Shown here: in pieces, positions 42,978 through 64,000 of the stretch
How the letters are laid out: each line of letters starts with the position of its first letter
Numbering within the stretch: the stretch's first letter is position 1
Assembly (NCBI GenBank): GCA_023701245.1
Contig: JAMPXK010000001.1
Span: 23 to 64,022, forward strand
Source: Elusimicrobiales bacterium
Lineage (GTDB): Bacteria; Elusimicrobiota; Elusimicrobia; Elusimicrobiales; UBA9959
DNA length: 64,000 nt
Reading direction: 5' to 3'
Notes under the pieces: generated by a model
What the model saw: the letters and a program-made list of their open reading frames with translations, nothing else
The model's database searches: none
What the model was told of the DNA's origin: nothing
Made by a program: the position numbers and the translations under genes

Positions 42978-44270
42978 CTACAGGAGAGCGTCGGCGGCCT
43001 CGAGGCCTTCTTTGACGCTTTCTTCCATGAAAGAGTATTTCCAGCCGCCGTAACGGCCTATGCTCTGCGCCTTCCGGGCCTTCAGCCAGGCCGTGATGAC
43101 CGGCAGCGCGGCGGCGCGCTCCTTGTTGTAGATCACGTAGGCGCAGGGGATCTTGAGCCAGAGCTTCTGGACCACGCGCGCGCCGGGACCGAGCAGCCCG
43201 CAGGCCTTCAGGCCTTTAAGGGCCGCGGTTTCGGCCGAGGCCAGGTCCAGGGCCTCTCCGGCGGTGGAGAACTCCACGTAAAACGAGGCGCAGCCGCGCG
43301 GGGCCAGTTCCCGCGAAAAATTGGTGGCCAGGCCGGCCCGGTAGAAAGCGAACTCCGGCCCCGGGAAATAGCCCCAGTGCATATCCGACTTTACGCCTTT
43401 CACGCCCAGGTTGAGCACGTAGACGGTATTGTGGCGCAGCGCCGCCGCCGCGCGCTTTACCGCGGCCGGCGCGTCCTGCGCCATGCCCACGAAGCTGTCC
43501 AGCGGCGAGGTGTTGATGAGGCGCTTGAAATGCACCGGCCCGAAGTGCCGTACCATGGCCACGCCCGCTTTAAGGTTGACGCTCTCCACTTCCAGGCCCA
43601 GGCGCAGGCCGGAGGACTTCATGGCCAGGGCGTTGGCCAGCGCGCCTATGCCGCCGCGGCGCGGGTAGTGAAAGACCGTGTTGTAGCCCAGGCCCTCGGA
43701 TCTTTTGCCGTAAGCGCCTTCTATGACTTCTTCTGGGCGAGGCATGGGCACGAAAGGCGCGCACCATTCCGTGGTGAGGCGGGCCAGCGGGTAGCGCCAG
43801 AGCTTGGCGTTGTAGGGCACCATGAAGTGCCTGGAGATGCCCGCGCCGAAGACGCGGCTGGTCCAGCGGCTGAACGGCTCCGTGCCGTCGCCGGGGCCGC
43901 CGCCGGCGCTGTAGGCCTTCAGGAAGCCGCTCACGCATTCCGCCTTGACCTTGCCGGGCATGCCTGCCAGGTTGGCCTGGAAAGGGTAAGGGGTCCAGCG
44001 CCGGTGGGCGAAGACGCGCGCGTCGCGCTTGAGGCGCAGGCAGTTGCCGCCCAGCGCGCCCAGGATGAACCTGGAGGTCTTGGGCCAGCGCAGGTGCAGC
44101 AGGTGGCCGGAATAGTCGAAGTGGAAGCCGCCTTTCGTTACGGTGGCGGACAGGCCGCCGGGGCGGTTCTCCCGTTCGGCGACGATATGGCTTTTTTTGC
44201 CTTCCAGGGCCTTGGCCGCGGAAAGCCCGGCCAGGCCGCCGCCGATTATGAGCACGTCTGTCTTAAGCAT
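42978..44270 (-). CDS. FAD/NAD(P)-binding oxidoreductase (amine-oxidase / UDP-galactopyranose-mutase-like fold)
   Basis: 430 aa. N-terminal DVLIIGGGLAGLSAA dinucleotide motif, ERENRPGG, YPFQANL. Substrate not inferable. Confidence 0.65.
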   Translation of the reverse strand: MLKTDVLIIGGGLAGLSAAKALEGKKSHIVAERENRPGGLSATVTKGGFHFDYSGHLLHLRWPKTSRFILGALGGNCLRLKRDARVFAHRRWTPYPFQANLAGMPGKVKAECVSGFLKAYSAGGGPGDGTEPFSRWTSRVFGAGISRHFMVPYNAKLWRYPLARLTTEWCAPFVPMPRPEEVIEGAYGKRSEGLGYNTVFHYPRRGGIGALANALAMKSSGLRLGLEVESVNLKAGVAMVRHFGPVHFKRLINTSPLDSFVGMAQDAPAAVKRAAAALRHNTVYVLNLGVKGVKSDMHWGYFPGPEFAFYRAGLATNFSRELAPRGCASFYVEFSTAGEALDLASAETAALKGLKACGLLGPGARVVQKLWLKIPCAYVIYNKERAAALPVITAWLKARKAQSIGRYGGWKYSFMEESVKEGLEAADALL

Positions 44271-45339
44271 TCGCGGTTTCTCCGGTGAGGCTGGCGGCCG
44301 CGGCCTTGAGCCGGGCCAGGTCGATATCGTGCAGGCATTCGCGGCCGCCGCATTTAAGGCGCATGCGGGTGCTGGCGTAAGGGTAATCGTAGCAGGGGGC
44401 GCAGGGCAGCTTTGGGCCTACCACGGCGTTGCGCCGCCCGTAAGGGGCTGTCATAGCCGGATTGGAGGGGCCGAACACGGTTACCGACGGCACGCCTACG
44501 GCGGCCGCCAGGTGGCCCAGGCCGGAGTCCGTGTTCACGAACAGCGAACAGCGCTTTATAAGGGCCGCGGCCTGGGTTACCGAGGCGCCGGCGCAGAGCG
44601 CGGGCCGCTGCGCCGCGTTGGCCAGCACGGCCGCGGCTGCCTCTTTTTCGTCGGGGCCGCAGAAAACTATGACTTTCAGGCCGCGGTCGGCGCAAAGCCA
44701 GTCCGCCAGCGCGGCCAGGGTCTTGAGTACGGAGGGGGCCCAGGCCTTATAGATCTGCGCCGGGTTCACCGCCGGGTGCAGGCCGGCCAGCCTGGCGCCG
44801 CCCAGGCCGTTCTCCCGGATGAAGGCCTCCGCGAAAGCTTCGTCTTCGGCCGTCAGCCAGGGCGCCAGGTCCCTGGGCGCCTCCGGGTCCAGGGCCAAAC
44901 CGGCCAGCAGGTCCATGTTGTGTTCCACTTCGTGCTTGTGCGGCTCGGCCGGGATTCTGAGGTTCTGCAGTGCCGCCAGCGTGGCCAGCGGCGCGTGGGC
45001 GTAGGAGTGGGTTATGCGCCTTGGCGCCCCGGTCCAGCGGGCGAGCAGGTTGTACCAGAGCTTGTTGGATGGAAAGGTGGTTATGGACGCGTCGAATTTT
45101 TCCCGGCGCAGGAAAAACAGGAGTTTAAGCGTTTCCGGGAGGAGCGCCGGGCGCGGGTGTCTGAACCCTACTTTTACCGCGCGGACGAAGGGGCAGTTGC
45201 GCAGGGCGTCTTCGCAGGCGCTGTCGGGCACCAGCACGGTAAGGCGGGCGGCGGGCAGGGCGCGGTTGATGGCCCGCAGCAGCGGTATCATCATGAGCGT
45301 GTCGCCCAGGCCCTTGAGGGAAAGTATCAGTATTTTCAT
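44263..45339 (-). CDS. Glycosyltransferase family 9 (heptosyltransferase-like)
   Basis: 358 aa. MKILILSLKGLGDTLM... N-terminus and C-terminal VNTDSGLGHLAAAVGVPSVTVFGP motif typical of GT9. Confidence 0.8.
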   Translation of the reverse strand: MKILILSLKGLGDTLMMIPLLRAINRALPAARLTVLVPDSACEDALRNCPFVRAVKVGFRHPRPALLPETLKLLFFLRREKFDASITTFPSNKLWYNLLARWTGAPRRITHSYAHAPLATLAALQNLRIPAEPHKHEVEHNMDLLAGLALDPEAPRDLAPWLTAEDEAFAEAFIRENGLGGARLAGLHPAVNPAQIYKAWAPSVLKTLAALADWLCADRGLKVIVFCGPDEKEAAAAVLANAAQRPALCAGASVTQAAALIKRCSLFVNTDSGLGHLAAAVGVPSVTVFGPSNPAMTAPYGRRNAVVGPKLPCAPCYDYPYASTRMRLKCGGRECLHDIDLARLKAAAASLTGETANA

Positions 45340-45368: not shown

Positions 45369-47312
45369 TCAGGCGCCGGCGGGCTTCCTGGCCAGCACGG
45401 CGATGCGCCGCCGCGCCAGCGGGCAGTACGGCAGCAGCGCTTTCTCCAGAAGCGAAAAGACCGGGATATGGGACTCGGCGTAATACGCCTTCTCCGTGGT
45501 GAAGCCCGCCGCGGCCAGGCTGGCCTTGAGGCCTTCCAGCGTCTTGTAATCCACGTGGGCGACGTCCTTGGCGAGGAAAATGTCGTTCTCGCGCAGGATG
45601 GTCAGCAGGCTGTCGCGGCAGTCGGTCCAGATGACCAGGCGGCCGCCGGGTTTAAGCAGGCGCCGGCATTCCGCCAGCATCTTCTCGAAAACTTCCGGGT
45701 AGAGGTGCTCCACCAGGTCGGCGCAGAACACGGTGTCGTAGGCCGCGGAGTCCAGGCCGGTGGCGGAGGCGTCCGCCCTGACGAATTTGACGTTGGGCGC
45801 GGCCAGCCCTTTAAAGGCCCGCTCGCAGAGCTCTATGCTCTTGGCGCTGTAGTCCACGCCGGTTATCTCCCGCACGCGGGAATGCAGAACTTTTTCCATG
45901 GTGCCCCAGCCGCAGCCGAGGTCCAGCACCGCTTCGCCGGGGCCCGGGTCGTAGATGCCGAGTATTTTGGAGATCCGGTAGCGCTGAAAGGGGGTATCGG
46001 GGCTGCCTATCTCCCCGAAGTTCTTTTCGCTGGTGAAGTAATCCGTGCTGTCGTAGAATTCGCGGATCTGCTCCTGCCTGGCGAAATCCCCGCCCGGGCT
46101 TGGGGCCCGCCGGGCCGCCGGGCCAAGGCGCAGGGCGGACAGCCTGGCCAGGGCGTAGGCCGCGAACATTATGATGTAGGGATCGACCGGGACCCGGTAG
46201 CGCAGCGTCACCACGAACAGCATATGCACCAGGGTGTAGAGCAGCAGCAGGCCGATAAGCAGCGAAGTCTTGCGCAGGGCCCCCAGGGACAGGAGGATGC
46301 CGAGGAAACAAAGAGGGATATAAAGGCCGGAGGTGGCCATGGCGGCGTACTTCTGCCATTTGTAGGCCATCATGGGGTAGAGGCGCCAGAAGTGCAGCGC
46401 CCTCAGGTACAGCAGGTAGCTGAAGGTGTCCGGGTTCTCCCGCAGCCATTCCAGGGACTTTTCCCTGCAGTACTTGTCGCGCTCCGGCAGCGGCAGGTTG
46501 GTGACGTAGTCCCAGTCCTTGGGGGAGATCTGGGCTATCTGCGGGGAATCCTGCTCTCCCATCATCTCCACCCTTACGGCGGCGTCGGAACAGGAACCGT
46601 AGAAAGTGTACCAGGGCGTCGAGACCGGCATAACGTAGCCGTCGTGGTGCAGGTAGTTGCGCAAGGTCCAGGGCATGATGGCCAGGGCTGTGAAAAGTCC
46701 CGCGAGGAGCGCCGCTTTGAGCTTGCCGCTCTGCCACCAGAGCCAGCCGCAGGCGAGCAGCAGGAAGGGCAGCGTGGTGGACTTGGTGAGGGCGGTAAAG
46801 CCCATCACCACGCCGGCTGCGGCGAGGTTGGGCAGGGAGGCGCGCTCGCCGGCCCGGGCCAGCGCGTAGACCGCCGCGGACAGGATGAAGGTGAGGAACG
46901 TTTCGCTGAGCAGGTCCCCGGTGTAGGCGATGAAGTAGGGGTAGAAGCTCATCAGCGCCGCCGTGATCCGCGCGGTCCGCCCGTCAAAGAGGCGGCCTGC
47001 GGCCAGGTAGGCCAGCAGCACGGTGGCCGTGCCCAGCAGCACGTTCAGCAGTTTGGCCGCCATCACGGATTTGCCGAAGACCGCGAAGACCCCGGCCAGG
47101 TAGAAGGCGTAGCCGGGCGGGCGCCAGGAGCCGCCGAAACCTTCCCCGGAGGCTATGCGCCAGGCCGTGTTGAGCCAGTCGTAGGCGTCGGGCGAGAGGC
47201 CGCCGGTACCGGTCTTGAGCACCCAGGCCAGCCGCAGCAGCGCGGCCAGGCCCAGCCAGAAAAACAGGAAGTTGCGTTCAACGTCGAACCACGCGGCCAG
47301 TTTCTTGATCAT
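45369..47312 (-). CDS. Fusion: N-terminal GT-C (ArnT/PMT_2-like) membrane glycosyltransferase + C-terminal class I SAM methyltransferase
   Basis: 647 aa. About 380 aa of polytopic membrane domain (SPDAYDW...GYAFYLAG...). Then a cytoplasmic domain with VLDLGCGWG motif I and RLLKPGGRLVIW. Confidence 0.75.
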   Translation of the reverse strand: MIKKLAAWFDVERNFLFFWLGLAALLRLAWVLKTGTGGLSPDAYDWLNTAWRIASGEGFGGSWRPPGYAFYLAGVFAVFGKSVMAAKLLNVLLGTATVLLAYLAAGRLFDGRTARITAALMSFYPYFIAYTGDLLSETFLTFILSAAVYALARAGERASLPNLAAAGVVMGFTALTKSTTLPFLLLACGWLWWQSGKLKAALLAGLFTALAIMPWTLRNYLHHDGYVMPVSTPWYTFYGSCSDAAVRVEMMGEQDSPQIAQISPKDWDYVTNLPLPERDKYCREKSLEWLRENPDTFSYLLYLRALHFWRLYPMMAYKWQKYAAMATSGLYIPLCFLGILLSLGALRKTSLLIGLLLLYTLVHMLFVVTLRYRVPVDPYIIMFAAYALARLSALRLGPAARRAPSPGGDFARQEQIREFYDSTDYFTSEKNFGEIGSPDTPFQRYRISKILGIYDPGPGEAVLDLGCGWGTMEKVLHSRVREITGVDYSAKSIELCERAFKGLAAPNVKFVRADASATGLDSAAYDTVFCADLVEHLYPEVFEKMLAECRRLLKPGGRLVIWTDCRDSLLTILRENDIFLAKDVAHVDYKTLEGLKASLAAAGFTTEKAYYAESHIPVFSLLEKALLPYCPLARRRIAVLARKPAGA

Positions 47313-53376: not shown

Positions 53377-54960
53377 TCAGCCTTTTGCCGGCCTGGCGTA
53401 GATGCGCAGCCAGTCCGGGATGAAGAACATTTTAGGGACACGGGCCCTGAGTTTAAAACCGAAAAGAGAGAAGTCCGCCCTGAATCGCGCCGCGGGAGAA
53501 TAGCCGGCCCCGGCGAGCGCCGCCTCCAGCGCGGCTTCGTCGAGGTAGCCCGCCTCGGTGCTGGAGACTATCACCAGGCCGGGCTTTTGGGCGGCAAGGC
53601 GGTCGTAGCCCGGCGAACTGGCCCATTCTCCCGAGGTGAGCCGCGCAAAACTCGCGCCAGGCAGGACGGGGGACAGCGGATGGCGGTATTTCAGTTCCAC
53701 TACCCCGGGCCCGAACCAGGAGGGTTCCCGCAGGAGGCCGATAACCGCTCCCGGGCGGGCGTTCTCGGCCAGCCAGCGCGAGGCGGCGTCCCGGAGGTCC
53801 TCGGCCAGCAGCAGGCGCGCCGTGGCGGCCTGGAAAAGCAGCAGTTCCGCCAGGATGAGCGCGGCGCCGGCGCGGCGCACGGAGGGGAACTTTTCGCCGG
53901 CGGCCGCCAGGGCGCGGGCGGCGTATAAAGCCAGGAACGGGAAGAGCGGCAGCATCCTGCCGGCCGAAGCTGCCGCGGCCGCTTTCACGAAGATCGCGAG
54001 CAGCGGCAGCGTCCAGGCGGCCAGCAGCAGGTCGTCCTTGGTGCGCCGCCAGAGGGAAAAGACCAGACCTCCCAGCCCGGCCGCGGCCAGCAGGCCGCCG
54101 GTACCGTCGCAAAAAGCCGCCGCCAGGGTCCGCAGGCCGCCCGTGCCCTGCGTCACCACTCCGGCGATGGCGCCGGTGCCCCGCTGGAAAGCGGCGAAGT
54201 CCAGGACCGAATAAGGCGTCCCGATAAGGAAAGCGGCCGCCATGGCCAGCAGGCCGAGCAGCGGCTGCCTGAGGTCCAGCGCCCGGCGGGGCCCCAGCAA
54301 ATGCGCCGCCAGCAAAGGCAGCACCAGGGGGGCGGCGGAATAGCGCGTGGAAACGGCCAGGCCGGCCGCTATGCCGCCCAGCCAGTAGAAGCGGCTTTCC
54401 CCTGTGTCCATCAGCCGCTTGAACAGGAATATGGCGAGGATGATCCAGAAAAGCCCGGGGCCGTTCATCAGCAGGTAGCGCGAGAAGGCCGTGTGCGCCG
54501 GCGCCAGCGCCAGGAACAGAGCCGCCAGCGCGGCGGCCGCCGGGCCGAACATGGCCCGCCCCAGGAAGTAGAGGACCACTACGGACAGCGCGCCGTACAG
54601 AGCGGACAGGCCCCGGCCCGCCAGGTAGAAACGCGCCCACTCGGCGGGATTGGCGTAGTAGAACTCCTTATCCGGGACCAGGGTAAGGGCTTTTGCCAGG
54701 GCCAGGGCTTTAAGCGAGACCGCGAAGGTGTAGAGGTGGAAGGTGCCCTCGCCCAGGGCGTTGGGGGTTCTTTCTCCTACGGGGCTGAAGTCCAGGCGGG
54801 CCGGGTCCATGGCCTGCAGGTGGGCCATGGGCGTGTTCTCGTCGCAGTTGTAAGTGTTGAGGTGGTAAGGGCCGGGCAGCGCCCAGCGCAGGCCGATCAG
54901 TACGGGGATGGCGCCGGCCAGGACTATGGCTGCGAGCCGTAATTTTTCTGATCTTTGCAT
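53377..54960 (-). CDS. GT-C fold (ArnT/PMT_2-like) membrane glycosyltransferase
   Basis: ATG at 54960 (the track start at 54990 is a TTG). Polytopic membrane N-terminal two-thirds plus a soluble C-terminal domain. Confidence 0.6.
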   Translation of the reverse strand: MQRSEKLRLAAIVLAGAIPVLIGLRWALPGPYHLNTYNCDENTPMAHLQAMDPARLDFSPVGERTPNALGEGTFHLYTFAVSLKALALAKALTLVPDKEFYYANPAEWARFYLAGRGLSALYGALSVVVLYFLGRAMFGPAAAALAALFLALAPAHTAFSRYLLMNGPGLFWIILAIFLFKRLMDTGESRFYWLGGIAAGLAVSTRYSAAPLVLPLLAAHLLGPRRALDLRQPLLGLLAMAAAFLIGTPYSVLDFAAFQRGTGAIAGVVTQGTGGLRTLAAAFCDGTGGLLAAAGLGGLVFSLWRRTKDDLLLAAWTLPLLAIFVKAAAAASAGRMLPLFPFLALYAARALAAAGEKFPSVRRAGAALILAELLLFQAATARLLLAEDLRDAASRWLAENARPGAVIGLLREPSWFGPGVVELKYRHPLSPVLPGASFARLTSGEWASSPGYDRLAAQKPGLVIVSSTEAGYLDEAALEAALAGAGYSPAARFRADFSLFGFKLRARVPKMFFIPDWLRIYARPAKG

Positions 54961-55057
54961 AGGGTGCTGGGCGGCAGTTGCGGGCGCCAATTAAATATAC
55001 AATAATTAACATAGCGTAACAACCCGGCGGCGGCGCGCCGCTCCGGGCGGAAAACTA

Positions 55058-56491
55058 ATGAGGATCCTGCTTATAAACCTGCCGCGTGTCGACGGCTTCC
55101 CGGTGATCCGGGAGGAGCGGTTCGAACACAAGGATTTCGAGATGGTCCAGCCTCCGCTGGGCCTGCTCTACTGCGCGTCCATGCTGCGCGCGGCGGGACA
55201 CGCCGTGGCCCTTATAGACGCCAACGCGCTGGACCTTTCGCAGGCAGAGACGGAGCGCAGGGCGGCCGCCTTCGCGCCGGGGATCATAATCGCCAGGGTG
55301 GCTTTCGACGCGCAGGACCAGGACGCGGCGGCGCTGGCCCGCATAAAAGCGGCCGTGCCCGGCGCCCTGGTGCTTACCCGAAATAAAATACTTTCCGACG
55401 TTCCGGCCCTGCGCGACGCTTTCATGGCGCGGCACCCGCAGCTGGACTACTTCCTGCTGATGGAACCTGAATCCGTAGTGGGCCAGGTCTGCGCGGCCCT
55501 GGCGGCCGGGCAGCGCCCGCCCGCCGCCGCCTGGCTGGAGAAAGGCGCGGTCACGGAAGGCGCCCCCGCCCAGCTGCCCGCCGCCCTGGACGAGTTCCCT
55601 TTCCCGGCCTATGACCTGCTGGAGACCATGGCGCCGTACAAGACCAGCATGTTCGGCCCCGTCTATACGCTGGTGCTTTCCAGCCGCGGCTGCCCGTTCC
55701 AGTGCACTTTCTGCGCCTATTGCCGTTCCAAGTACCGCGAGCGGTCCGCCGCCAACGTGGTGGCCGAACTGAAATGGCTCAAGGAGACCGTCGGGCTCAA
55801 GAATTTCGTGTTCTTTGACGACACTATCTCGCTCAAGCGCGAGCGCACCATGGAGATCTTCCGGCTCATGCGCGAGAGCGCCCTGGACCTGAAGTTCGGA
55901 GTCTGCACCCGGGTGGACCTGATAGACGACGAGATGGTGGCCGCGGCCAGGGCCGCCGGCTGCGTGGAGATCGGTTTCGGGGTGGAGTCGGGCTCCCAGA
56001 AAGTGCTGGACCTGGCCAAGAAGGGGATAAAGCTCGACCAGGTGCGCGCCGCCTTCGCCCTCTGTAAAAAACACGGCATAAAATCCATCGCCTCGGTGAT
56101 CCTGGGCCTGCCCGGGGAGACCGAAGAGACCGTCCGCGAGACTTTCCGCTTCATCTCCGAATTGAACCCGTATTACTGCCAGTACGCCATCGCGGTACCC
56201 TTTCCCAATACGGAAGTGTACCGCTATTACGACGAGCGCGGCCTTATCCTTACCCGCGACTGGACCAAATACAACCCGCTGGAGGTCTCCCCGGTGTTCC
56301 GCACCGAGGCGCTCAGCGCCGAGCGTCTTACCGAACTGAAACGCCAGGGCTACATAAAGTTCCTGCTGCGCCCCTCGTTCATACTTTCCAAGATAGAACC
56401 GTTCAACCTGCTGTGGAACATAAAGGGTTTCTTCATGTACGCTCACCGGCTGGCCGGGCTGCTGCTGAGCGGCAGGAAGTACGTCCGCTGA
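55058..56491 (+). CDS. B12-binding-domain radical SAM enzyme (class B), paralog 1
   Basis: 477 aa. N-terminal Rossmann-like B12 domain (MRILLINLP...PPLGLLYCASMLR). SSRGCPFQCTFCAY is a CxxxCxxC motif. Confidence 0.85.
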   Translation: MRILLINLPRVDGFPVIREERFEHKDFEMVQPPLGLLYCASMLRAAGHAVALIDANALDLSQAETERRAAAFAPGIIIARVAFDAQDQDAAALARIKAAVPGALVLTRNKILSDVPALRDAFMARHPQLDYFLLMEPESVVGQVCAALAAGQRPPAAAWLEKGAVTEGAPAQLPAALDEFPFPAYDLLETMAPYKTSMFGPVYTLVLSSRGCPFQCTFCAYCRSKYRERSAANVVAELKWLKETVGLKNFVFFDDTISLKRERTMEIFRLMRESALDLKFGVCTRVDLIDDEMVAAARAAGCVEIGFGVESGSQKVLDLAKKGIKLDQVRAAFALCKKHGIKSIASVILGLPGETEETVRETFRFISELNPYYCQYAIAVPFPNTEVYRYYDERGLILTRDWTKYNPLEVSPVFRTEALSAERLTELKRQGYIKFLLRPSFILSKIEPFNLLWNIKGFFMYAHRLAGLLLSGRKYVR

Positions 56492-57609
56492 TGAAATTCT
56501 GCGTCCTCTCCTCTCTGGCGTCCCGCAGCGGCAGCTCCATCCGCAACCGCGGGATCTGCCGCGCGCTGGCCGGGCTGGGCCACCAGGTGGAGTATCTCGA
56601 GCCCGTGGTTCCCGGCGACGAGCCCCCGGCGGGAGAGGGGTTCGGCCAGCTGCCGTACCGCGCCTCCTTCGCCAGCCCGGCGCTGTGGACCATACCTGCC
56701 CTATTCCATAACGCCGGCCGCCTGCTGGAACTGAAGCCGGACATGGTCATGGTGATGAAGCCTTTCGCGCATACCGCGCTGCCCGCCCTGCTGGCCCGTC
56801 TGGCGCACGGCGCCAGGGTAGTAATGGATTTCGACGACCTGGACTGCGGCTACTTTTCCGGCGGCGCCGCGCAGGCGCTGGTGGAACAGCTGCAGTTGTT
56901 TTTCCTGCGCCGCGCGGACAGGGTCTGCGTTCATAATCCTGCCCTGCGCGCCTACCTGGAAGAGAACGGCGTAAAGCCCGGGCGTATAACCTTCCTGGGC
57001 CAGGGCATAGACCCGGAGAAGTACCGCCTTGGCGCCGCCCCGGCGCCGGCCCTGCCCAAAGACTGGGAAACGGCGACGGTGCTGCTTTACGCGGCGCATC
57101 TCGGGCCGGCCGCGGCGCTGGAACCCATCCTTAAACTGACCGCGGAACTTCCGGGTAATTTCCGCCTGCTCGTAGTAGGCGGCGGCGCCAGGCTGGAAGA
57201 GTTCCGGCTGGCGGCCGGGCGCCTTGGCATAGAGGGCCGGACCCTGTTCACCGGCTACCTGCCGCACGCCGAAGCCCTTGGCTGGCTGCGGCGCGGGCAG
57301 ATAGCCCTGAACTATCTCTGGGAGAACGAGCCGCGAGAAAAATTCCGCTCGCAGATAAAGCTACGGGAGTACCTGGCGCTGGGCCTGCCGGTGGTGTCCT
57401 CCCGCGGGGGCGACGTGGAACTTTTCGGGGAATTCCTGGAGATAGCCGCCGACGACGCGGATTTCAGGAACAAGGTGCTCAAGACCGCGGCCGGCCTGCC
57501 GGCGGCCGCGGCCCGGGCGGCCCGCGGGCGGGCCTGGGTGAACGAAAAATTCTCCTGGGCCGGGCTGGTCCGGGAATGGCTGGCCGCCGCGGAGCTGGAA
57601 AAGTTATGA
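56491..57609 (+). CDS. GT4-type (GT-B fold, Glycos_transf_1) glycosyltransferase
   Basis: ATG at 56491 overlaps the upstream stop. C-terminal E..K..EYLALGLPVVSS motif. Confidence 0.75.
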   Translation: MKFCVLSSLASRSGSSIRNRGICRALAGLGHQVEYLEPVVPGDEPPAGEGFGQLPYRASFASPALWTIPALFHNAGRLLELKPDMVMVMKPFAHTALPALLARLAHGARVVMDFDDLDCGYFSGGAAQALVEQLQLFFLRRADRVCVHNPALRAYLEENGVKPGRITFLGQGIDPEKYRLGAAPAPALPKDWETATVLLYAAHLGPAAALEPILKLTAELPGNFRLLVVGGGARLEEFRLAAGRLGIEGRTLFTGYLPHAEALGWLRRGQIALNYLWENEPREKFRSQIKLREYLALGLPVVSSRGGDVELFGEFLEIAADDADFRNKVLKTAAGLPAAAARAARGRAWVNEKFSWAGLVREWLAAAELEKL

Positions 57610-58580
57610 CAAAAGTATCGGTGGTAGTTCCCGTATATAACGGGGCCAGGACCATAGGCCTGGCCCTGGACGCGCTGCTGGCGCAGACAGTGAAGGACCT
57701 CGAGATCATAGTGGCCGACGACGGGTCTACCGATAATACGGCGGAACTGGTCAGGGCGCGCCCCGTTAAATACCTGCGTCAGGAGAACGCCGGGCCCGCC
57801 AAGGCGCGCAACCTGGGCTGGCGCGCGGCCTCCGGAGAGATCATTTTTTTCACCGACTCGGACTGTGTGCCCGAGCCGGAGTGGGTGGCTAAGCTCTTGC
57901 GCGCTTTCGCGGACCCGGCTGTTTCCGCCGCCGGCGGCACTTACGGCATAAAGAACCCGGAAAGCCTGGTGGCGCAGTGCATCCATTACGACATCCAGTA
58001 CCGTCACGCGCGTCTGGGCACCGAGGTGGCCTACCTGGGCTCCTTCAGCCTGGCCCTGCGCCGCACCGCCCTGGAGGCGGCAGGCGGCTTCGACGAGAGT
58101 TTCCGCATAGCCTGCGGCGAGGACGCCGACCTCTCCTACCGCCTCTACAAGGCAGGCCACCGCTTCCGTTTCGACAAGAACTGCCTGGTCTTCCATCATT
58201 TCCCGGTCGGTTTCACCCATTTCTGCCGTCAGCAGTTCTGGCGCGGCTACTGGATCATGAAGCTGCTGGCCCGGCACGGCAGCACCGGCGCTCCGGGATA
58301 CAGTAATTTCCTGGACGCGCTGCAGCCGCCTCTTTTCGCGCTGGCCCTGGCCGCGCTGGCGGCGGCGCCGCTGCTGCCGGCCGTCAGAACCGCGGCGCTG
58401 GTCCTCAACCTGCTGGCGTTCGCCGTGAACCTGCCCTCGGCGCTGTTCGGCGTCCGCGCGTCGGGGTCGCCCCGCCTGCTGTTCTCCCTGGTTCTGTTCT
58501 ATTTCAGGGGTTTCGCCTGGGTGCTGGGCCTGGCTTACGGCTCTGGCTTCCTGCTTTCCCGCGGCGGTGACAAGAAATGA
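57606..58580 (+). CDS. GT2 glycosyltransferase with C-terminal TM helices
   Basis: ATGA overlap. VSVVVPVYNG, VADDGSTDNT, FTDSDC (DxD), QQFWRGYW (QxxRW-like). Confidence 0.8.
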   Translation: MTKVSVVVPVYNGARTIGLALDALLAQTVKDLEIIVADDGSTDNTAELVRARPVKYLRQENAGPAKARNLGWRAASGEIIFFTDSDCVPEPEWVAKLLRAFADPAVSAAGGTYGIKNPESLVAQCIHYDIQYRHARLGTEVAYLGSFSLALRRTALEAAGGFDESFRIACGEDADLSYRLYKAGHRFRFDKNCLVFHHFPVGFTHFCRQQFWRGYWIMKLLARHGSTGAPGYSNFLDALQPPLFALALAALAAAPLLPAVRTAALVLNLLAFAVNLPSALFGVRASGSPRLLFSLVLFYFRGFAWVLGLAYGSGFLLSRGGDKK

Positions 58581-59992
58581 AAATACTGCTCCTTAACCCG
58601 CCGGCCGGCACCAGCCTTTCTTCCACGCTGCCGGATAAGTACACCTCCGTGGAGATAGGATATTACCCGCCGCTGGGCCTGATGTACCTGGCCGGTTACC
58701 TGCGCGCCCGGACCGCCCACACGGCCGTGATAGCCGACATGGTGGCCCAGCGCCTGGTGCTGGGCGACCTGGCCGGCCTGCTGGAACGCCACCGTCCCGA
58801 CGCGGTGGGCGTTTACTCGGCCAGCGCCACCGCCAACAGCGTGTACAAGATCTGCGCCAGGCTAAAAGAGCTCGCCCCGACGCTGCCGGTCATAGTGGGC
58901 GGTCCCCACGCCGACATTTTCCCGGCGGAAACCGTGGCCTGGCCCGCGGTGGACTACGTGGTGCGCGGCGAGGGCGAGCTGACCCTGGCCGAACTGCTCG
59001 ACCGCTTGGCCGGCGGCGGGGACCCGGCCGGGGTGGCCGGGGTGTACAGCAAGAAGGACGGGGTTGCGGTTTCCGGCGGCGACCGGCCGCCCGTGGCCGA
59101 TCTCGACGAACTGCCTTTCCCGGCCCGGGACCTGACCGAGTATAAGAAGTACCATTCCGCCATAGGCAAGGACAAGGTGGCCACCACGCTGATGACCAGC
59201 CGCGGCTGCCCTTACCGCTGCAATTTCTGCTTTGTGCAGTACGGCGGGCGCTACCGGGCCCGCAGCGCGGCCAACGTGCTGGCCGAGATAGAGGAATGCC
59301 TGAAGCTGGGTATCCGCGAGTTCTTCTTCTTCGACGAGATCTTTACGGTGGACAAGAAGCGCGTGCTGGCCATCTGCGACGAGATAGTCAGGCGCAAGCT
59401 GGATATAACCTTCGAGGTGCGCTCCCGCATCAATACCATGGACGCGGAGATGCTCGCCGCCCTGAAGAAGGCCGGCTGCGAGCGGATCTCCTACGGCGTG
59501 GAGTCCGCCTGCGACGAAGTGCTGAAGGCCATGAACAAGCGCATTACCGCCGCGCAGGCCCGCGAGGTGACGGCGCTGACACAGCGGGCGGGGATAGAGG
59601 TGTTCCTGGATTTCATGCTGGGCTACCCCGGAGAGACCAGGGAGCAGATGCTGCGCACCATGGCCTTCGCGCGCGAACTGGACCCCGACTACGTGCAGTT
59701 CGCCATAACGGTGCTTATTCCCGGCACTACCATTTACGACGAGGCCCTGGCCTCCGGGCAGCTTAAGTCGGATTTCTGGCGCGAGGTGGCCAAGAACCCG
59801 CCTGACCTGATAGTGCCGCCGCTGGCATCGGATAAATACGGCCGCGAGTTCCTGGAGGAGATGTTCAGGAAGGCTTACAGGGGGTTCTATTTCCGGCCGG
59901 CCTACGTCCTGAAGCGGCTCAAGAAGATCTCGTCGCTGACGGAGCTGGGCAGGCACATAAAAGGCGCCTTCCAGCTTTTCAGGGACAGTTAG
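58577..59992 (+). CDS. B12-binding-domain radical SAM enzyme (class B), paralog 2
   Basis: 471 aa. ATGA overlap. MKILLLNPP...PPLGLMYLAGYLR. TSRGCPYRCNFCFV. Confidence 0.85.
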   Translation: MKILLLNPPAGTSLSSTLPDKYTSVEIGYYPPLGLMYLAGYLRARTAHTAVIADMVAQRLVLGDLAGLLERHRPDAVGVYSASATANSVYKICARLKELAPTLPVIVGGPHADIFPAETVAWPAVDYVVRGEGELTLAELLDRLAGGGDPAGVAGVYSKKDGVAVSGGDRPPVADLDELPFPARDLTEYKKYHSAIGKDKVATTLMTSRGCPYRCNFCFVQYGGRYRARSAANVLAEIEECLKLGIREFFFFDEIFTVDKKRVLAICDEIVRRKLDITFEVRSRINTMDAEMLAALKKAGCERISYGVESACDEVLKAMNKRITAAQAREVTALTQRAGIEVFLDFMLGYPGETREQMLRTMAFARELDPDYVQFAITVLIPGTTIYDEALASGQLKSDFWREVAKNPPDLIVPPLASDKYGREFLEEMFRKAYRGFYFRPAYVLKRLKKISSLTELGRHIKGAFQLFRDS

Positions 59993-59995
59993 AGG

Positions 59996-61417
59996 TCAGG
60001 CTTTTTTCCTGCCGAGCAGGTAGGAGAAGAAACTGCGCGCGCCGTAGAGCTTGCGCATCAGGTCCGACGGGGAAGTGAAAAGCATCCGCAGTATCTGCAG
60101 GGGGCGCAGGTAGAATTCCTTCAGGCCCCTGTCTATAAAATAATCTATTTCTTCCTTGGACAGCTGGGGATAGCTGAGCAGGGTCACCTGCTCGCAGTTC
60201 GGGCTCACCCACTCGCGCCAGTCCTTTGGCACCAGGTAGCCTTTTTCCCTGGCCCAGTCGTAAAGTTCCGTGCCAGGGTACACGCAGATGCCGGAGAACT
60301 GCACCGTGTCCAGGGGGAGGCTCTTGGCGAACTCTATGGTGGCCTCCGCCGATTCCCTGGTCTCGCCGGGCGCGCCTACCATGAAGCAGCCGTGCAGGGT
60401 AAAACCCAGCCGCGAGGCTTCGGCCGCGAAACTGCGGGACTGCTCCAGCGTTATCCCTTTCTTTACCGCGTCCAGGGCGGCCTGGGTGCCGAATTCGAAC
60501 CCTACCATCAGCATGCGGCAGCCGGCCTTTTTCATGAGCGGCAGCAGGGAGAGGTCCATGTCCACCCGGGTATTGCAGCTCCAGGTGACCTTGAGACCGC
60601 GCTTGAGGATCTCCTCGCAGAGCGCCTTCAGGTGGACGGCCGAACCGGTCAGGGTATCCGTTTCGAACATGAGCTCGCGCAGCCGGGGGAAAAGCTTCAG
60701 GTCGTATTCCATCTCGTCCACGATAGCCCGGGCGGAGCGCAGGCGCATGTGGCGGCCGTGCATGGACTCGGTGGTGTCGCGGCAGAAGGTGCAGCGGCCC
60801 AGGCAGCCGCGCCCGGAGATGATGGTGAGGAAAGGGACGCGCTTGGCCACGTCCTTGTAAAGTTCCGGATCGATGTGGCGCCAGGCGGGGAAAGGCAGGG
60901 AGTTCACGTCCACCGGCGCGCCGTAGGGGTTGTTGACGGCCTTGCCGTCCTTGAGGTAGCTCAGGCCGGCTATCGATGCCGGGTCCTTGCCGTAGGCCAG
61001 GTCCAGGAGGACGTAGTCGTATTCTCCGCGCGCTACGTAGTCCGCGGCGCCGCCGGCGAGGGCCAGGGTCTCGGCGGGCAGGGCGGTGACATGGGGGCCT
61101 ACCAGCACGGTGCGGCAGCCGCAGGTCTCCTTGAGCATCCTGGCGTGGTCGATGTCGGAATAAATGGAGGGGGTGGTGGTATGGACCACGGCCAGTTCCG
61201 GGCGGAAGTCCGCGGCTATGGCGGCCACTTTCTTCATGTCCAGGTTGAGGGCCGCGGCGTCGGTGAACACGACCTGGTGGCCGCCGCGCTCCAGCACGGC
61301 CACGGCGGTGAGCAGCCAGTCGGGGTGGCGCTGCACGCGGCCGCGGGATTTGGCGGCCCACCTGGCGGAGCGGCAGAAATCTTCGCCGTAGAAAGGGTTG
61401 AGTACCAGGACTTTCAT
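59996..61417 (-). CDS. B12-binding-domain radical SAM enzyme (class B), paralog 3
   Basis: 473 aa. MKVLVLNP.... SGRGCLGRCTFCRD. The N-terminal FCRSARWAAKSRGRV segment is reminiscent of HpnJ-like members (from memory). Confidence 0.8.
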   Translation of the reverse strand: MKVLVLNPFYGEDFCRSARWAAKSRGRVQRHPDWLLTAVAVLERGGHQVVFTDAAALNLDMKKVAAIAADFRPELAVVHTTTPSIYSDIDHARMLKETCGCRTVLVGPHVTALPAETLALAGGAADYVARGEYDYVLLDLAYGKDPASIAGLSYLKDGKAVNNPYGAPVDVNSLPFPAWRHIDPELYKDVAKRVPFLTIISGRGCLGRCTFCRDTTESMHGRHMRLRSARAIVDEMEYDLKLFPRLRELMFETDTLTGSAVHLKALCEEILKRGLKVTWSCNTRVDMDLSLLPLMKKAGCRMLMVGFEFGTQAALDAVKKGITLEQSRSFAAEASRLGFTLHGCFMVGAPGETRESAEATIEFAKSLPLDTVQFSGICVYPGTELYDWAREKGYLVPKDWREWVSPNCEQVTLLSYPQLSKEEIDYFIDRGLKEFYLRPLQILRMLFTSPSDLMRKLYGARSFFSYLLGRKKA

Positions 61418-61429
61418 GTTTTAAAAAAC

Positions 61430-62110
61430 TTAGTCGAACCTGTTCTTCACTACCACGCGCAGCGATTTGAACCCGTCGCGCCAGCTGATCTTCTTGCCTT
61501 CGCCGTAGGTGCGGGGATTGTAACTGATGGGGATCTCCAGTATCTTAACGCCCTTGCGGATGAGCTTTACCGCCAGCTCGCAGTCGAAATCGAAGCCTTT
61601 GCACTCGAAGGCAAGCCCCTCCAGCGCCGAGGCGCGGAAAACCTTGTAGCAGGTGAGGATGTCGGTGAGCGAGGTGCCGTAGAGGAGGTTGGCCAGGGTA
61701 ATGAGGACCTTGTTGGCGAGCAGGCTGGCGTAGCGGAATTTGGCCTTGCCCAGGAAGCGCGAACCGAACACCACGTCCGTTTCGTTGGCGACGATATGCT
61801 TGAGCAGGGCCGGGTATTCTTCGGGGCTCACTTCCAGGTCCGCGTCCTGTATCAGCACTATGTCCCCGGCGGCGTGCCGCAGGCCTTTCTGGACGGCCGC
61901 GCCTTTGCCTTCGCGCCGGTCTTCGTAAATTATGCGGGTGTCGGGCCTGCCTTCCTCCTGCCTGAGCCGGTCGCGGGTGCCGTCGGAAGACGCCCCGTCC
62001 ACCACAATTATCTCTTTCTCCATGCCTACCTGCACCTGCCGCACCCTGGAGATGATCTCCAGGATGGTGCCGGCTTCGTTGTAGACAGGGATGATGACGG
62101 AAAGTTTCAT
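61430..62110 (-). CDS. GT2 glycosyltransferase (Dpm1/polyprenyl-phosphate sugar synthase-like, soluble)
   Basis: ATG at 62110 (ATGA overlap with the upstream gene). LSVIIPVYNE, VVDGASSDGT, QDADLE. Confidence 0.8.
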   Translation of the reverse strand: MKLSVIIPVYNEAGTILEIISRVRQVQVGMEKEIIVVDGASSDGTRDRLRQEEGRPDTRIIYEDRREGKGAAVQKGLRHAAGDIVLIQDADLEVSPEEYPALLKHIVANETDVVFGSRFLGKAKFRYASLLANKVLITLANLLYGTSLTDILTCYKVFRASALEGLAFECKGFDFDCELAVKLIRKGVKILEIPISYNPRTYGEGKKISWRDGFKSLRVVVKNRFD

Positions 62111-62802
62111 GCGCCGCAGGTCCAGGCCTTGGCGGCGCGCCCGGCTTCTTCCAGCTGGGAGACGCGTTCTATGGCGAGCCACGGGTCCTTGAATTCGTAT
62201 TTAAGCACGCGCTTGCCGCCGCGCAGGAGGGCTTTTACCAGGTCCGGCATGGTGAAGAAGCGGCCGCGGGGCACGGCCGCGAGTGCCGCGCCGCCCAGCA
62301 CGTAGATGCCGGCAGAGATGAGGTATTCCTTCACGGGCTTTTCGGTGATGCCGGTAACGGCGTCCCCGGCTATCTCCAGCGTGCCGAAGGGCAGCTGGTC
62401 GGAGTATTTGCGCACGGCGATGGTCAGGTCCGCGCGGTTCTGCGCGTGGAAGCGGCGCAGGCGGTTGAAATCCAGCTTGGTCAGGATGTCGCCGTTCATG
62501 ACCAGGAAGGGGGGCTTGAGGCCGCGGATGAGCTTGAGCGGGCCCGCCGTGCCCAGGGGCTTCTTTTCCCTGGTATAGGCGATGTTCACGCCGAACTTGC
62601 GCCCGTCGCCGAAGTAGGCCTCGATGAGTTCCGCGCCGTAGCCCAGCGTCAGGGTGACGCTTTTTATGCCCTGCGAGCGCAGGCGCATCAGGATGTGTTC
62701 CAGGATGGGGCGCTCGCCTACGGGCAGCAGCGGCTTGGGAATGGAAAAAGTGAAAGGCTGCAGGCGGGTACCGCACCCGCCAGCCACTATGACGGCCTGC
62801 AT
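62107..62802 (-). CDS. Sugar-1-phosphate nucleotidyltransferase
   Basis: ATG at 62802. MQAVIVAGGCGTRLQPFT..PKPLLPV is the G-G-x-G-T-R-L signature. Confidence 0.85.
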   Translation of the reverse strand: MQAVIVAGGCGTRLQPFTFSIPKPLLPVGERPILEHILMRLRSQGIKSVTLTLGYGAELIEAYFGDGRKFGVNIAYTREKKPLGTAGPLKLIRGLKPPFLVMNGDILTKLDFNRLRRFHAQNRADLTIAVRKYSDQLPFGTLEIAGDAVTGITEKPVKEYLISAGIYVLGGAALAAVPRGRFFTMPDLVKALLRGGKRVLKYEFKDPWLAIERVSQLEEAGRAAKAWTCGA

Positions 62803-62812
62803 GGGCCGCGCC

Positions 62813-63802
62813 TCAGATCTGGTATTTGTCCGGGTCATAGCCTTCCATGTGGGCGCGCATCCAGTCCACGGTATGCCGCAGCCCCGCTTCCAGGGAAGTT
62901 TTGGGCTCCCAACCTATCAGTTCTTTGGCCCTGGAGTTGTCGCAGAGCAGCTGCATCACTTCGCTGCCCTTCGGGCGCTTGCGGGCGCTGGTGGTGACTA
63001 TCCGGGCCTTCTTGCCGGTCACCTTGAGGATGGCCGCGGCCAGTTCGCCCACGGAAATATCCCGGCCGGTGCCGATATTGATAGCCTGGCCTATGGCCTT
63101 GGGGGATTCCGCCGTTTTGATGAACCCGTCCACGGTGTCGAGCACGTAGTTCATGTCCCGGCGGGGGGTGAGCGAGCCCAGCGTTATCTGCTTCTTGCGC
63201 AGCGCCTGGATGATGATAGTGGGGATGATGGCCCGGTCGGACTGGCGGGGGCCGTAGGTGTTGAACGGCCGCAGGGTGGCCACGGGCACGCCGTAGGTCT
63301 TGTGAAAGGCCTCCGCCACTTTATCCGCGGCTATCTTGCTGGCCGAATAGGGCGACTGGGCCTGCAGGGGGTGGTCCTCGTCGATGGGGGTGTAGAGGGC
63401 CGTGCCGTACACTTCCGATGTGGAGGTGGTCACCACTTTGCTGGCGCCGGCGTCGCGCGCGGCCAGCAGCAGGTTGAGGGTGCCGGTGGCGTTCACTTCG
63501 AAAACCTCGCGCGGGTTGACGTAGGAGTACGGGATGCCTACGAGCGCCCCGAGGTGGAACACCACGTCCTTGCCGCGCAGCAGCTTCTTGATCATCTCCG
63601 GGTCGCGCAGGTCGCCCGGGGCCAATTCTATGTGGGAGAGGACGCTTTTGGGGAGGTGGCGCAGGCAGCCCAGGTCGTTGTACGGCGTGTATTCCAGCAG
63701 GGCCGTTACTTTGGCCCCGCTGGTCACCAGCCGCTCGGTCAGGTGGCTGCCTATGAAGCCGCTGCCGCCCGTTATGAATACCTTTTGCCTGCGCCAGTTC
63801 AT
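62813..63802 (-). CDS. NAD-dependent NDP-sugar epimerase/dehydratase (extended SDR)
   Basis: 329 aa. ITGGSGFIGSHL; catalytic YSASKIAADK (YxxxK). GGAGG SD upstream. Confidence 0.85.
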   Translation of the reverse strand: MNWRRQKVFITGGSGFIGSHLTERLVTSGAKVTALLEYTPYNDLGCLRHLPKSVLSHIELAPGDLRDPEMIKKLLRGKDVVFHLGALVGIPYSYVNPREVFEVNATGTLNLLLAARDAGASKVVTTSTSEVYGTALYTPIDEDHPLQAQSPYSASKIAADKVAEAFHKTYGVPVATLRPFNTYGPRQSDRAIIPTIIIQALRKKQITLGSLTPRRDMNYVLDTVDGFIKTAESPKAIGQAINIGTGRDISVGELAAAILKVTGKKARIVTTSARKRPKGSEVMQLLCDNSRAKELIGWEPKTSLEAGLRHTVDWMRAHMEGYDPDKYQI

Positions 63803-63816
63803 CGTGCCTCCGGGGG

Positions 63817-64000
63817 TCAGACCGCGACTTTTACGGATTCTTTGACCGCGTCGGTCACGGCCTTGATCTGCTCGTCGGAGAGTTCCGGGTACATCGGCAG
63901 CGAGAACACGGTGTCCTGCACCGCGTCGCAGACCGGCAGGTCCCCGCGCTTGTAGCCGAGGTGCTTGTAGGCCTCCTGCAGGTGCAGCGTGATCGGGTAA
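63817..64000 (-). CDS. DegT/DnrJ/EryC1-family PLP aminotransferase, C-terminal fragment (5' end outside window)
   Basis: Hand translation of the minus strand gives YPITLHLQEAYKHLGYKRGDLPVCDAVQDTVFSLPMYPELSDEQIKAVTDAVKESVKVAV*. This is the typical DegT-family C-terminus. Stop (TCA on the plus strand) at 63817-63819. Confidence 0.75.
   Translation of the reverse strand, partial: YPITLHLQEAYKHLGYKRGDLPVCDAVQDTVFSLPMYPELSDEQIKAVTDAVKESVKVAV

Follow-up and report, generated by a model that had tools for sequence, protein, structure and literature searches.

Three radical SAM enzymes among the glycosyltransferases of an Elusimicrobiales bacterium, one of them sister to the hopanoid enzyme HpnJ

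To our knowledge, few radical S-adenosylmethionine (SAM) enzymes have been described that tailor lipid-linked sugars (HpnJ, Cds, MoeK5 and aminoglycoside enzymes), and no head-group rearrangement has been reconstituted. HpnJ belongs to the HpnI-HpnJ-HpnK(-HpnL) cassette for bacteriohopanetetrol cyclitol ether of Burkholderia, Mycetohabitans and Methylobacterium. In the Arn pathway (ArnB, ArnA, ArnC, ArnD, ArnT) and in the PpgS/Rv3632/Rv3779 system of mycobacteria, an aminosugar is loaded onto polyprenyl phosphate, modified, and transferred on the outside by a glycosyltransferase of the GT-C type. HpnJ and Cds, the latter from Sulfolobus, have been proposed to contract the rings of lipid-linked hexoses or hexosamines (PMC13459092, PMC9092360), and C-methylation is the activity listed for MoeK5, GenK and GenD1 (PMC13459092, PMC9204698). 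Similarity networks group HpnJ with Fom3 and with the moenomycin enzyme MoeK5, both review-listed C-methylases (PMC9204698). The aminosugar paromamine is the substrate of AprD4, a radical SAM diol dehydratase whose Rossmann-like N-terminal domain binds no cobalamin (PMC12931638). Here we analyze a stretch of 64,000 nucleotides from an Elusimicrobiales bacterium, referred to as the window, in which three radical SAM genes, named rSAM-1, rSAM-2 and rSAM-3 in their order along the DNA (Table 1), lie among glycosyltransferase genes.

The window covers positions 23-64022 of a 128-kb contig (C76, JAMPXK010000001.1) of a 2.5-Mb assembly (GCA_023701245.1) that comprises 96 contigs, is 92.8% complete and has ~64% G+C. 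The original prediction, made from the letters of the window, had placed three radical SAM proteins of ~470 aa amid a family 4 glycosyltransferase (GT4) and a membrane family 2 glycosyltransferase (GT2). This was borne out by codon-position G+C, which identifies all three open reading frames (ORFs) as genuine coding frames (third-position G+C, GC3, of 0.84-0.86), and by Pfam Radical_SAM matches. We consider it rather likely that the enzymes tailor a sugar in a lipid-linked envelope glycan or glycolipid pathway, and the probable product of the locus is a lipid-linked sugar that has undergone unusual remodelling by undescribed chemistry.

Kinship of the three enzymes and the relation of rSAM-3 to HpnJ

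The matches to Pfam Radical_SAM (PF04055) have E values of 8e-29, 1e-27 and 3e-16 for rSAM-1, rSAM-2 and rSAM-3, respectively, and fold searches confirm the class-B architecture. As predicted, a [ST][SG]RGC..xC.FC cluster motif is present in all three: the cluster stretches are SSRGCPFQCTFC in rSAM-1, TSRGCPYRCNFC in rSAM-2 and SGRGCLGRCTFC in rSAM-3, with the CxxxCxxC cores CPFQCTFC, CPYRCNFC and CLGRCTFC. An N-terminal cobalamin-type domain had also been predicted for each. The Pfam B12-binding model (PF02310, threshold 32.1 bits) supports this for rSAM-2 and rSAM-3, which pass the threshold; rSAM-1 scores below it and has RNKI in place of the GGPH motif of the domain, although its structural model contains the Rossmann fold.

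Pairwise identity among the three proteins is 28-34%. We placed them in a quick IQ-TREE tree of 80 sequences and in a careful tree of 53 sequences with ultrafast bootstrap and SH-aLRT support, using samples of the three families, class-B enzymes from the same genome, and three true HpnJs. The careful tree contains three separate clades, one for each rSAM and each supported at 100/100. The rSAM-1 clade joins the group formed by rSAM-3 and the true HpnJs at 96/96, and the rSAM-2 clade lies outside. Recent paralogy is ruled out by the three old clades and the low identity, so the description of the three as paralogous is accurate in a distant sense only. The top NCBIfam model for each protein is HpnJ (TIGR03471), with scores of 160.9, 211.9 and 348.1 bits for rSAM-1, rSAM-2 and rSAM-3 against a cut-off of 577.6 bits. 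All three proteins also have sub-threshold scores of 80-134 bits for AprD4 (NF033070; 133.9, 131.2 and 79.6 bits, cut-off 500), of 85-135 bits for the lipid-biosynthesis B12 radical SAM model TIGR04072 and of 55-117 bits for HpnR, and AprD4 is the top PDB match by sequence for each. No curated NCBIfam model reaches its cut-off with any of the three proteins, and the models other than HpnJ also stay far from theirs.

rSAM-3 is 35-36% identical to HpnJ in an end-to-end alignment, is the reciprocal best match of true HpnJ in the genome, and has the same N-terminal R-W/Y-x-A-K, the same GPHVTALP and the same insertion after CxxxCxxC. However, it scores 348 bits against the HpnJ model, where a true HpnJ scores 714.9 bits, and its conserved cysteines C15, C267, C300, C344 and C378 are missing in HpnJ. 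In the tree, the rSAM-3 clade (100/100), joined by a protein from a Lawsonia plasmid, and the clade of the three true HpnJs (100/100) are sister groups at 100/96, with rSAM-3 outside the HpnJ clade. Six cysteines outside the cluster motif (C15, C267, C281, C300, C344 and C378) are invariant or nearly so in the rSAM-3 family. Four of these, C281, C300, C344 and C378, lie on consecutive predicted barrel strands, and C281 alone is common to HpnJ. These cysteines could form an auxiliary cluster site or serve as hydrogen-atom donors.

The genomic setting separates the two families as well. No match to the squalene-hopene cyclase (shc) model TIGR01507 was found in the 92.8%-complete genome, and tblastn searches of the genome with HpnI, HpnK and HpnL gave no match at 1e-4. 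Among 20 other genomes that carry rSAM-3, shc is present in two and absent in 18, and the rSAM-3 ortholog of each scores 300-380 bits against the HpnJ model. Both families occur in one of these 20 genomes (G018, a complete Deltaproteobacteria metagenome-assembled genome, MAG), in which a true HpnJ of 714 bits lies near shc and an rSAM-3 ortholog of 328 bits lies at a separate locus. Four features of HpnJ membership are thus lacking: a score at the TIGR03471 cut-off, shc, the HpnI/K/L partners, and a place inside the HpnJ clade. On the strength of the missing shc and HpnI/K/L, the scores of the orthologs, the separation of the two families within one genome, and the rarity of shc among carriers, we conclude from these sequence comparisons that rSAM-3 is not HpnJ. 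A hopanoid pathway is ruled out by the same absences and by the sub-cut-off scores. With shc, HpnI, HpnK and HpnL all missing, and with no paper describing an rSAM-3/glycosyltransferase module found in the literature, the locus matches no characterized pathway.

Two further observations concern the HpnJ name. A canonical HpnI-HpnJ-HpnK cassette is seen in Burkholderiales records. The true HpnJ of the Deltaproteobacteria MAG G018 (bin617, CP070692.1, ~679889-681295; 715 bits) has other neighbors: HpnB, a GT2 of 398 bits, lies on one side and a PseC/LegC-like aminotransferase on the other, in place of HpnI and HpnK. A bona fide HpnJ can sit in a context of GT2 and aminotransferase genes like that of the rSAM-3 operon. 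A protein of a Deferrisomatales MAG (P0100) is named 'hopanoid biosynthesis associated radical SAM protein HpnJ'. It is 63-64% identical to rSAM-3, scores 321.6 bits and falls in the rSAM-3 clade, and the name is, by sequence, probably an over-annotation.

The rSAM-3 family has more than 2000 homologs, which are 60-68% identical across phyla, archaea included. The best 120 of these are 60-86% identical, and the named sources among them include Elusimicrobiota, Nitrospirota, Deltaproteobacteria, Acidobacteriota, Planctomycetota, Latescibacteria, Bacteroidota and one Promethearchaeota MAG. A genome scan adds carriers in Omnitrophota, Nanoarchaeota and Methanosarcinales, and Brachyspira catarrhinii Z12 (59%). 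Across 39 diverse members, ~110 columns are invariant, the N-terminal FCRSARWAAKSRGRVQRHPDW among them, and the family has an invariant Arg/Lys-rich N-terminal motif, RSARWAAKSRGRVQRH. The AlphaFold model of rSAM-3 has a predicted local distance difference test score (pLDDT) of 86.9, and its best fold match is AprD4, with a template modeling score (TM-score) of 0.78.

rSAM-1, rSAM-2 and the supply of cobalamin

The AlphaFold model of rSAM-1 (pLDDT 93.8) contains the Rossmann fold, and its best PDB fold match is, by a clear margin, AprD4 (6fd2; E 1e-30, TM-score 0.82, root mean square deviation 3.4 Å, 26% identity). We collected 249 homologs of rSAM-1, mostly 40-58% identical, and the majority are without a Pfam B12 match. 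Homologs from Goldbacteria (42-43% identity) occur in another context, beside a polysaccharide deacetylase, an acetyltransferase and another radical SAM gene. rSAM-1 is probably a cobalamin-independent, AprD4-like enzyme that resembles a dehydratase, and a reaction of the deoxygenation type is possible.

The closest relative of rSAM-2 among 1.8 billion representative proteins is just 49% identical to it, and 69,181 representatives match at E <= 0.001. Orthologs that are 52-58% identical come after the membrane GT2 in two other Elusimicrobia loci (L008 and L009), and rSAM-2 is absent from the otherwise collinear locus of the nearest relative (L006). rSAM-2 is a generic class-B member that behaves as an optional tailoring gene. 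It is probably a cobalamin-dependent tailoring enzyme, and most likely a C-methylase.

Neither CbiC nor CobS was found in the genome, and de novo B12 synthesis is ruled out on these grounds. Two cobalamin riboswitches score just above the gathering score, at 33.3 and 32.4 bits (C38:7728-7854(-) and C71:34008-34123(+)); one precedes a TonB-dependent receptor and the other a BtuF-like binding protein and a permease. Given the absence of CbiC and CobS and the position of the riboswitches before uptake genes, cobalamin must be imported. The cobalamin supply, a check suggested with the original prediction, therefore consists of import only, and by its gene content the organism resembles a B12 auxotroph which takes the cofactor up from outside.

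The genome has 24 B12-binding-domain matches, and 22 of these ORFs have CxxxCxxC. Such ORFs are located at C4:7807-12106, C15:743-4235, C94:1-3617, C59:25131-28271 and C76:109133-110509 and on contigs C52, C79, C26, C33 and C81; several are in tandem, with sets of B12-type radical SAM genes on contigs C4, C15, C94 and C59, and a brief look at these four sets revealed no glycosyltransferase cluster. This radical SAM load is unusually high for an organism unable to make cobalamin. Because of these 22 ORFs and their tandem sets, three radical SAM genes in one locus are not unusual for this organism. The original prediction had called three such enzymes in one locus uncommon, which is contradicted by related loci that hold two to six, by the ~20 such genes of the genome, and by the occurrence of the module in many phyla.

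Locus organization and recurrent neighbors

We surveyed the partners of rSAM-3 by tblastn of the window proteins against 84 fetched loci and by label-free clustering of all genes within 6 kb of rSAM-3 in 60 loci; ortholog neighborhoods in Brachyspira and Omnitrophota were read by ORF calling and Pfam. Statements on recurrent neighbors concern loci outside Omnitrophota. The most frequent partner is a homolog of the membrane GT2, which lies within 6 kb of rSAM-3 in 19 of the 60 loci and within 10 kb in 31 of ~80, and which is present in 18 of the 20 carrier genomes. At least 10 loci, from several phyla and archaea, have a small GT2 resembling Dpm1, ArnC and AglJ immediately upstream of rSAM-3. 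Additional B12-type radical SAM genes accompany rSAM-3 in 13 loci, with up to five extra copies (L008). The full module, consisting of a GT-C (PMT_2), a small GT2, DUF2304, rSAM-3, a second radical SAM gene, a GT4 and a GT2 of ~330 aa, occurs in Elusimicrobia and Deltaproteobacteria MAGs, and a GT4 of ~385 aa belongs to the module in other phyla. An ortholog of the GT-C adjoins the module in L006 and L007, and a PMT_2 gene borders it in an Elusimicrobia locus. The aminosugar cassette is in one operon with rSAM-3 here, in L006 and in L007, and a DegT gene adjoins more distant rSAM-3-like genes. The Omnitrophota copies of rSAM-3 sit among housekeeping genes (aconitase, leuCD), with a single ortholog of the membrane GT2 elsewhere in those genomes.

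In a sample of 151 genomes from the phylum, rSAM-3 was found in 13 and the membrane GT2 in five. All four genomes whose rSAM-3 is at least 57% identical have the membrane GT2 adjacent to it, and one of the 138 genomes without rSAM-3 has that GT2. One genome of the same genus has neither. Its patchy inheritance in the phylum marks the module as an accessory trait, which is usual for surface-glycan loci.

Three of the related loci deserve mention. Brachyspira catarrhinii Z12 (NZ_SJDU01000021.1, 4179-9156) is the sole cultured organism among 80 rSAM-3 loci; its ortholog is 59% identical and scores 352 bits against HpnJ, and after it come genes for a 343-aa GT2 and three SAM methyltransferases. 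The cultured pig pathogen Lawsonia intracellularis PHE/MN1-00 has a related module on its 27-kb plasmid 1 (NC_008012.1, 7082-26518). This module contains a GT2, GalE, a small GT2, two DUF2304 genes, a SIS-domain gene, an HpnJ-like radical SAM gene (34% identity to rSAM-3 and an HpnJ score of 376 bits), another radical SAM gene, five SAM methyltransferases, a GT2, and HAD and GHMP-kinase genes, and its annotation is generic throughout. The Elusimicrobiota MAG locus L008 (JAZDKR010000032.1, 4102-15200) has a run of six B12-type radical SAM genes with a membrane GT2 and a GT-C, the largest array among the fetched loci.

The genes of the locus itself are listed in Table 1. The predicted 1-nt and ATGA overlaps of the plus-strand block are all present: TGATG at 56489-56493 joins the stop of rSAM-1 to the start of the GT4 gene, and ATGA at 57606-57609 and at 58577-58580 couples the GT4 to the membrane GT2 and the membrane GT2 to rSAM-2, respectively. 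Because of the first ATGA overlap, the start of the membrane GT2 is placed at 57606 rather than at 57576. Its top NCBIfam match is MftF, at 164 bits against a cut-off of 280. As had been noted, rSAM-3 is convergent with rSAM-2 and abuts it, with merely 3 bp between the two stops. However, rSAM-3 does not head its operon, as had been thought, but is the last gene of a minus-strand unit in which a DegT-type aminotransferase is followed by a short-chain dehydrogenase/reductase (SDR), a nucleotidyltransferase, the small GT2 and rSAM-3. The small GT2 sits 12 nt upstream of rSAM-3, and its longest ORF reaches 62182. Its NCBIfam scores are 123 bits for AglJ, 72 for ArnC, 64 for a Dol-P-hexose transferase and 54 for PpgS, all below cut-off. 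The aminotransferase ORF (C76:63839-65032) starts at contig position 65032, or window coordinate 65010, past the window end; its scores of 244 bits for PseC, 222 for WecE-like, 207 for LegC and 199 for ArnB are likewise all below cut-off. Taken at the level of sequence families, the LegB-like 4,6-dehydratase and the PseC/WecE/LegC/ArnB-type aminotransferase point to a nucleoside diphosphate (NDP)-4-amino-4,6-dideoxyhexose.

The GT-C gene is divergent from the plus-strand operon, and its real start is probably downstream of the TTG. Together with the small GT2 it forms, in one locus, a pairing of the type ArnC-ArnT, GtrB-GtrC or PpgS-Rv3779, and further pairs of a small GT2 and a GT-C occur elsewhere in the window. 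No transmembrane segment is predicted in the three radical SAM proteins, the GT4 or the small GT2s. Promoter and terminator scans gave counts no higher than in shuffled sequence. Envelope genes surround the locus and encode GT-Cs, additional Dpm1-like GT2s, a GT9 heptosyltransferase, a WecA-like phosphotransferase, an RmlD-like reductase and a carbamoyltransferase. In the locus itself, no gene for lipid synthesis was found. A neighboring minus-strand operon encodes a GT9 heptosyltransferase-like protein (44263-45339(-)) and a fusion of a GT-C with a class I methyltransferase (45369-47312(-)); these genes suggest that the acceptor of the glycans of the region is lipopolysaccharide core or lipid A.

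Table 1. Genes of the radical SAM/glycosyltransferase locus, in window coordinates.
Feature	Coordinates	Strand	Evidence
GT-C (PMT_2/ArnT-like) polytopic membrane glycosyltransferase	53377..54990	-	Pfam PMT_2 6e-14, PMT 1.6e-13; ~7-8 hydrophobic segments
rSAM-1, degenerate Rossmann (B12-like) domain, AprD4-like fold	55058..56491	+	Radical_SAM 101 bits; B12-binding 29.0 bits
GT4 glycosyltransferase, 372 aa, soluble/peripheral	56491..57609	+	Pfam Glyco_trans_4_4, Glyco_transf_4, Glyco_trans_1_4; no transmembrane segment
Membrane GT2, ~324 aa, 3-4 C-terminal transmembrane helices (245-319)	57606..58580	+	Glycos_transf_2 117 bits; weak Glyco_transf_21
rSAM-2, canonical class-B (B12-binding) radical SAM	58577..59992	+	B12-binding 82.5 bits; Radical_SAM 97.5 bits
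rSAM-3, HpnJ-like class-B radical SAM	59996..61417	-	HpnJ TIGR03471 348.1 bits, end to end; B12-binding 37.5 bits; Radical_SAM 60.7 bits
Small GT2, Dpm1/ArnC/AglJ-like, putative polyprenyl-phosphate sugar synthase	61430..62110	-	Glycos_transf_2 112 bits; no transmembrane segment
Sugar-1-phosphate nucleotidyltransferase	62107..62838	-	NTP_transferase 115 bits; best NCBIfam mannose-1-P guanylyltransferase 149 bits, below cut-off
Extended SDR, LegB-like NDP-hexose 4,6-dehydratase	62813..63802	-	GDP_Man_Dehyd 231 bits; LegB TIGR04180 400.6 vs 475 bits
DegT/PseC/WecE-type NDP-4-keto-6-deoxyhexose 4-aminotransferase, 3' part	63817..64000	-	First gene of minus-strand operon

Proposed sugar tailoring and comparison with known systems

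The closest relatives of these enzymes, by characterized function or by structure, are sugar enzymes: lipid-linked glucosamine is the substrate of HpnJ, and paromamine that of AprD4. On this basis, the most reasonable reading is that the enzymes carry out radical tailoring of a sugar or of a lipid-linked glycan. To this extent we agree with the original prediction, which had several radical C-modifications installed on a sugar or lipid-linked glycan. Its wording of several such modifications by B12 enzymes is too specific, as the B12 domain of rSAM-1 is degenerate and its fold AprD4-like, and the closest relative of rSAM-3 is a proposed non-methylase.

The locus is best read as accessory and horizontally mobile and as serving a cell-envelope glycan or glycolipid; in it, three radical SAM enzymes of ancient divergence would tailor membrane-lipid-bound sugars, and the carrier would be polyprenyl phosphate or a glycolipid. 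From the gene content we infer the following substrates, steps and reactions. The nucleotidyltransferase, LegB-like 4,6-dehydratase and DegT-type aminotransferase of the minus-strand operon would make an NDP-4-amino-4,6-dideoxyhexose, which the Dpm1/ArnC-like small GT2 would load onto polyprenyl phosphate, as ArnC or PpgS does. rSAM-3 would then act on the lipid-linked aminosugar by radical rearrangement or by C-methylation, in the position that ArnD holds in the Arn pathway and that HpnJ holds after HpnI. By analogy with HpnJ, rSAM-3 probably uses an aminosugar that is lipid-linked and has a free amine. The plus-strand operon of rSAM-1, GT4, membrane GT2 and rSAM-2 would build and tailor a further lipid-linked sugar unit, and the adjacent divergent GT-C would transfer the product to an envelope acceptor at the outer membrane face.

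Several points weigh against such a pathway. None of the three radical SAM families contains a characterized enzyme, and sequence and fold do not separate methylation, rearrangement, dehydration and epimerization. The function of HpnJ rests on a knockout only and its mechanism is a proposal (PMC13459092), and AprD4, the best fold match of rSAM-3, binds no cobalamin (PMC12931638). An HpnK-type deacetylase is absent from the genome by tblastn, and the membrane GT2 has no specific similarity to HpnI (27 bits). About half of the rSAM-3 loci, mostly those of Omnitrophota, have housekeeping surroundings without glycan genes. Finally, a ring-contracted sugar on polyprenyl phosphate is no longer a glycosyl donor, which is a poor fit with transfer by a GT-C.

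Other functions for the three enzymes can be weighed against tailoring of a lipid-linked sugar. By analogy with Fom3, which acts on a substrate activated with cytidine monophosphate, the radical SAM enzymes might act on soluble nucleotide-activated sugars prior to lipid transfer, so that the glycosyltransferases would use C-methyl-branched or deoxygenated NDP-sugars as donors. The location of the NDP-aminosugar cassette in one operon with rSAM-3 would be expected in that case, as would the lack of transmembrane segments in the three enzymes and the GT4; HpnJ shares a network group with Fom3 (PMC9204698), and the invariant Arg/Lys-rich motif of rSAM-3 could bind a phosphate or diphosphate. However, HpnJ, the nearest characterized relative, is proposed to use a lipid-linked sugar, the most conserved neighbors are a GT2 of the polyprenyl-phosphate sugar synthase type and the membrane GT2 rather than NDP-sugar enzymes, and the NDP cassette is missing from most rSAM-3 loci. 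We hold soluble NDP-sugar substrates to be unlikely. It seems more improbable that the enzymes methylate, cyclize or cross-link an alkyl or isoprenoid chain that is then glycosylated, in the manner of HpnP/HpnR, GrsA/B or the ladderane enzyme. Class-B radical SAM enzymes commonly modify lipids (PMC13459092), and all three proteins have the sub-threshold TIGR04072 and HpnR matches described above, but the HpnJ score exceeds these in each case, rSAM-3 groups at 100/96 with HpnJ, a head-group enzyme, both modelled folds (rSAM-1 and rSAM-3) best match the sugar-acting AprD4, and lipid-synthesis genes were not found in the locus.

The three genes might also have no relation to the glycan genes, having come to lie there by chance or operon shuffling from a large, scattered class-B set. 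The ~20 such genes on many contigs of the genome and the Omnitrophota copies among housekeeping genes are what this would predict. It is already disfavored, and we regard it as very improbable, by the translational coupling of radical SAM to glycosyltransferase genes through the TGATG and ATGA overlaps, by the recurrence of their adjacency in many phyla and archaea, and by the significant co-occurrence of rSAM-3 with the membrane GT2.

Within sugar tailoring of a lipid-linked glycan or glycolipid, we are doubtful about ring contraction specifically. If it does take place, the substrate is more likely a glycolipid made by the membrane GT2, because a carbocycle on polyprenyl phosphate could not be donated by a GT-C. 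A bolder proposal, to which we give only a small chance, is that the rSAM-3 family is the core of an unrecognized, widespread pathway in which a hexosamine-type sugar on polyprenyl phosphate or a membrane glycolipid undergoes HpnJ-type radical ring contraction, in organisms from Elusimicrobiota to Asgard and DPANN archaea. If true, many anaerobes would have carbocyclic (aminocyclitol or carba-sugar) residues in their envelope glycans or glycolipids, with deoxygenation and C-methylation contributed by the AprD4-like rSAM-1 and the B12-type rSAM-2. Compared with HpnJ, the rSAM-3 family is far more conserved and widespread; it occurs in bacteria and archaea without hopanoids and is tied to polyprenyl-phosphate glycosylation genes. 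Its reaction, once known, would define a new envelope sugar modification in many uncultured anaerobic phyla, offer a handle on the mechanism of HpnJ and Cds, and correct the over-annotation of such proteins as HpnJ in databases. Brachyspira catarrhinii Z12, as a cultured carrier, makes the function of rSAM-3 testable.

Among known systems, Cds, MoeK5, GenK and GenD1 are likewise radical SAM enzymes of glycolipid or aminoglycoside pathways, and they can be likened to the present enzymes by chemistry only. AprD4, the apramycin 1,2-diol dehydratase (PDB 6FD2), is the best fold of both rSAM-1 and rSAM-3, and rSAM-1 likewise lacks GGPH. However, no adjacent partner reductase of the AprD3 type was found, and the setting here is an envelope-glycan locus, not an aminoglycoside cluster. 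The relation to AprD4 is one of fold only. The Arn and PpgS systems share with this locus an aminotransferase and an SDR, a small GT2, a modifying enzyme and a GT-C, with sub-threshold scores for ArnC, ArnB and PpgS, and related loci carry DUF2304, a partner typical of PpgS, which was not found in this genome by tblastn. The locus differs from Arn in that a radical SAM enzyme stands in place of the deformylase step, that the sugar is predicted to be of the 4,6-dideoxyhexose type and not 4-amino-4-deoxy-L-arabinose (L-Ara4N), and that no score reaches its cut-off. We regard Arn and PpgS as analogies of logic. The closest known system is the HpnI-HpnJ-HpnK cassette, which likewise combines a membrane-associated GT2 with a class-B radical SAM enzyme of ~470 aa; here, in contrast, the partners are a Dpm1-like GT2, another membrane GT2, a GT4 and a GT-C. 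The locus is one instance, well-ordered and with an aminosugar cassette, of a widespread uncharacterized variant of radical tailoring of lipid-linked sugars.

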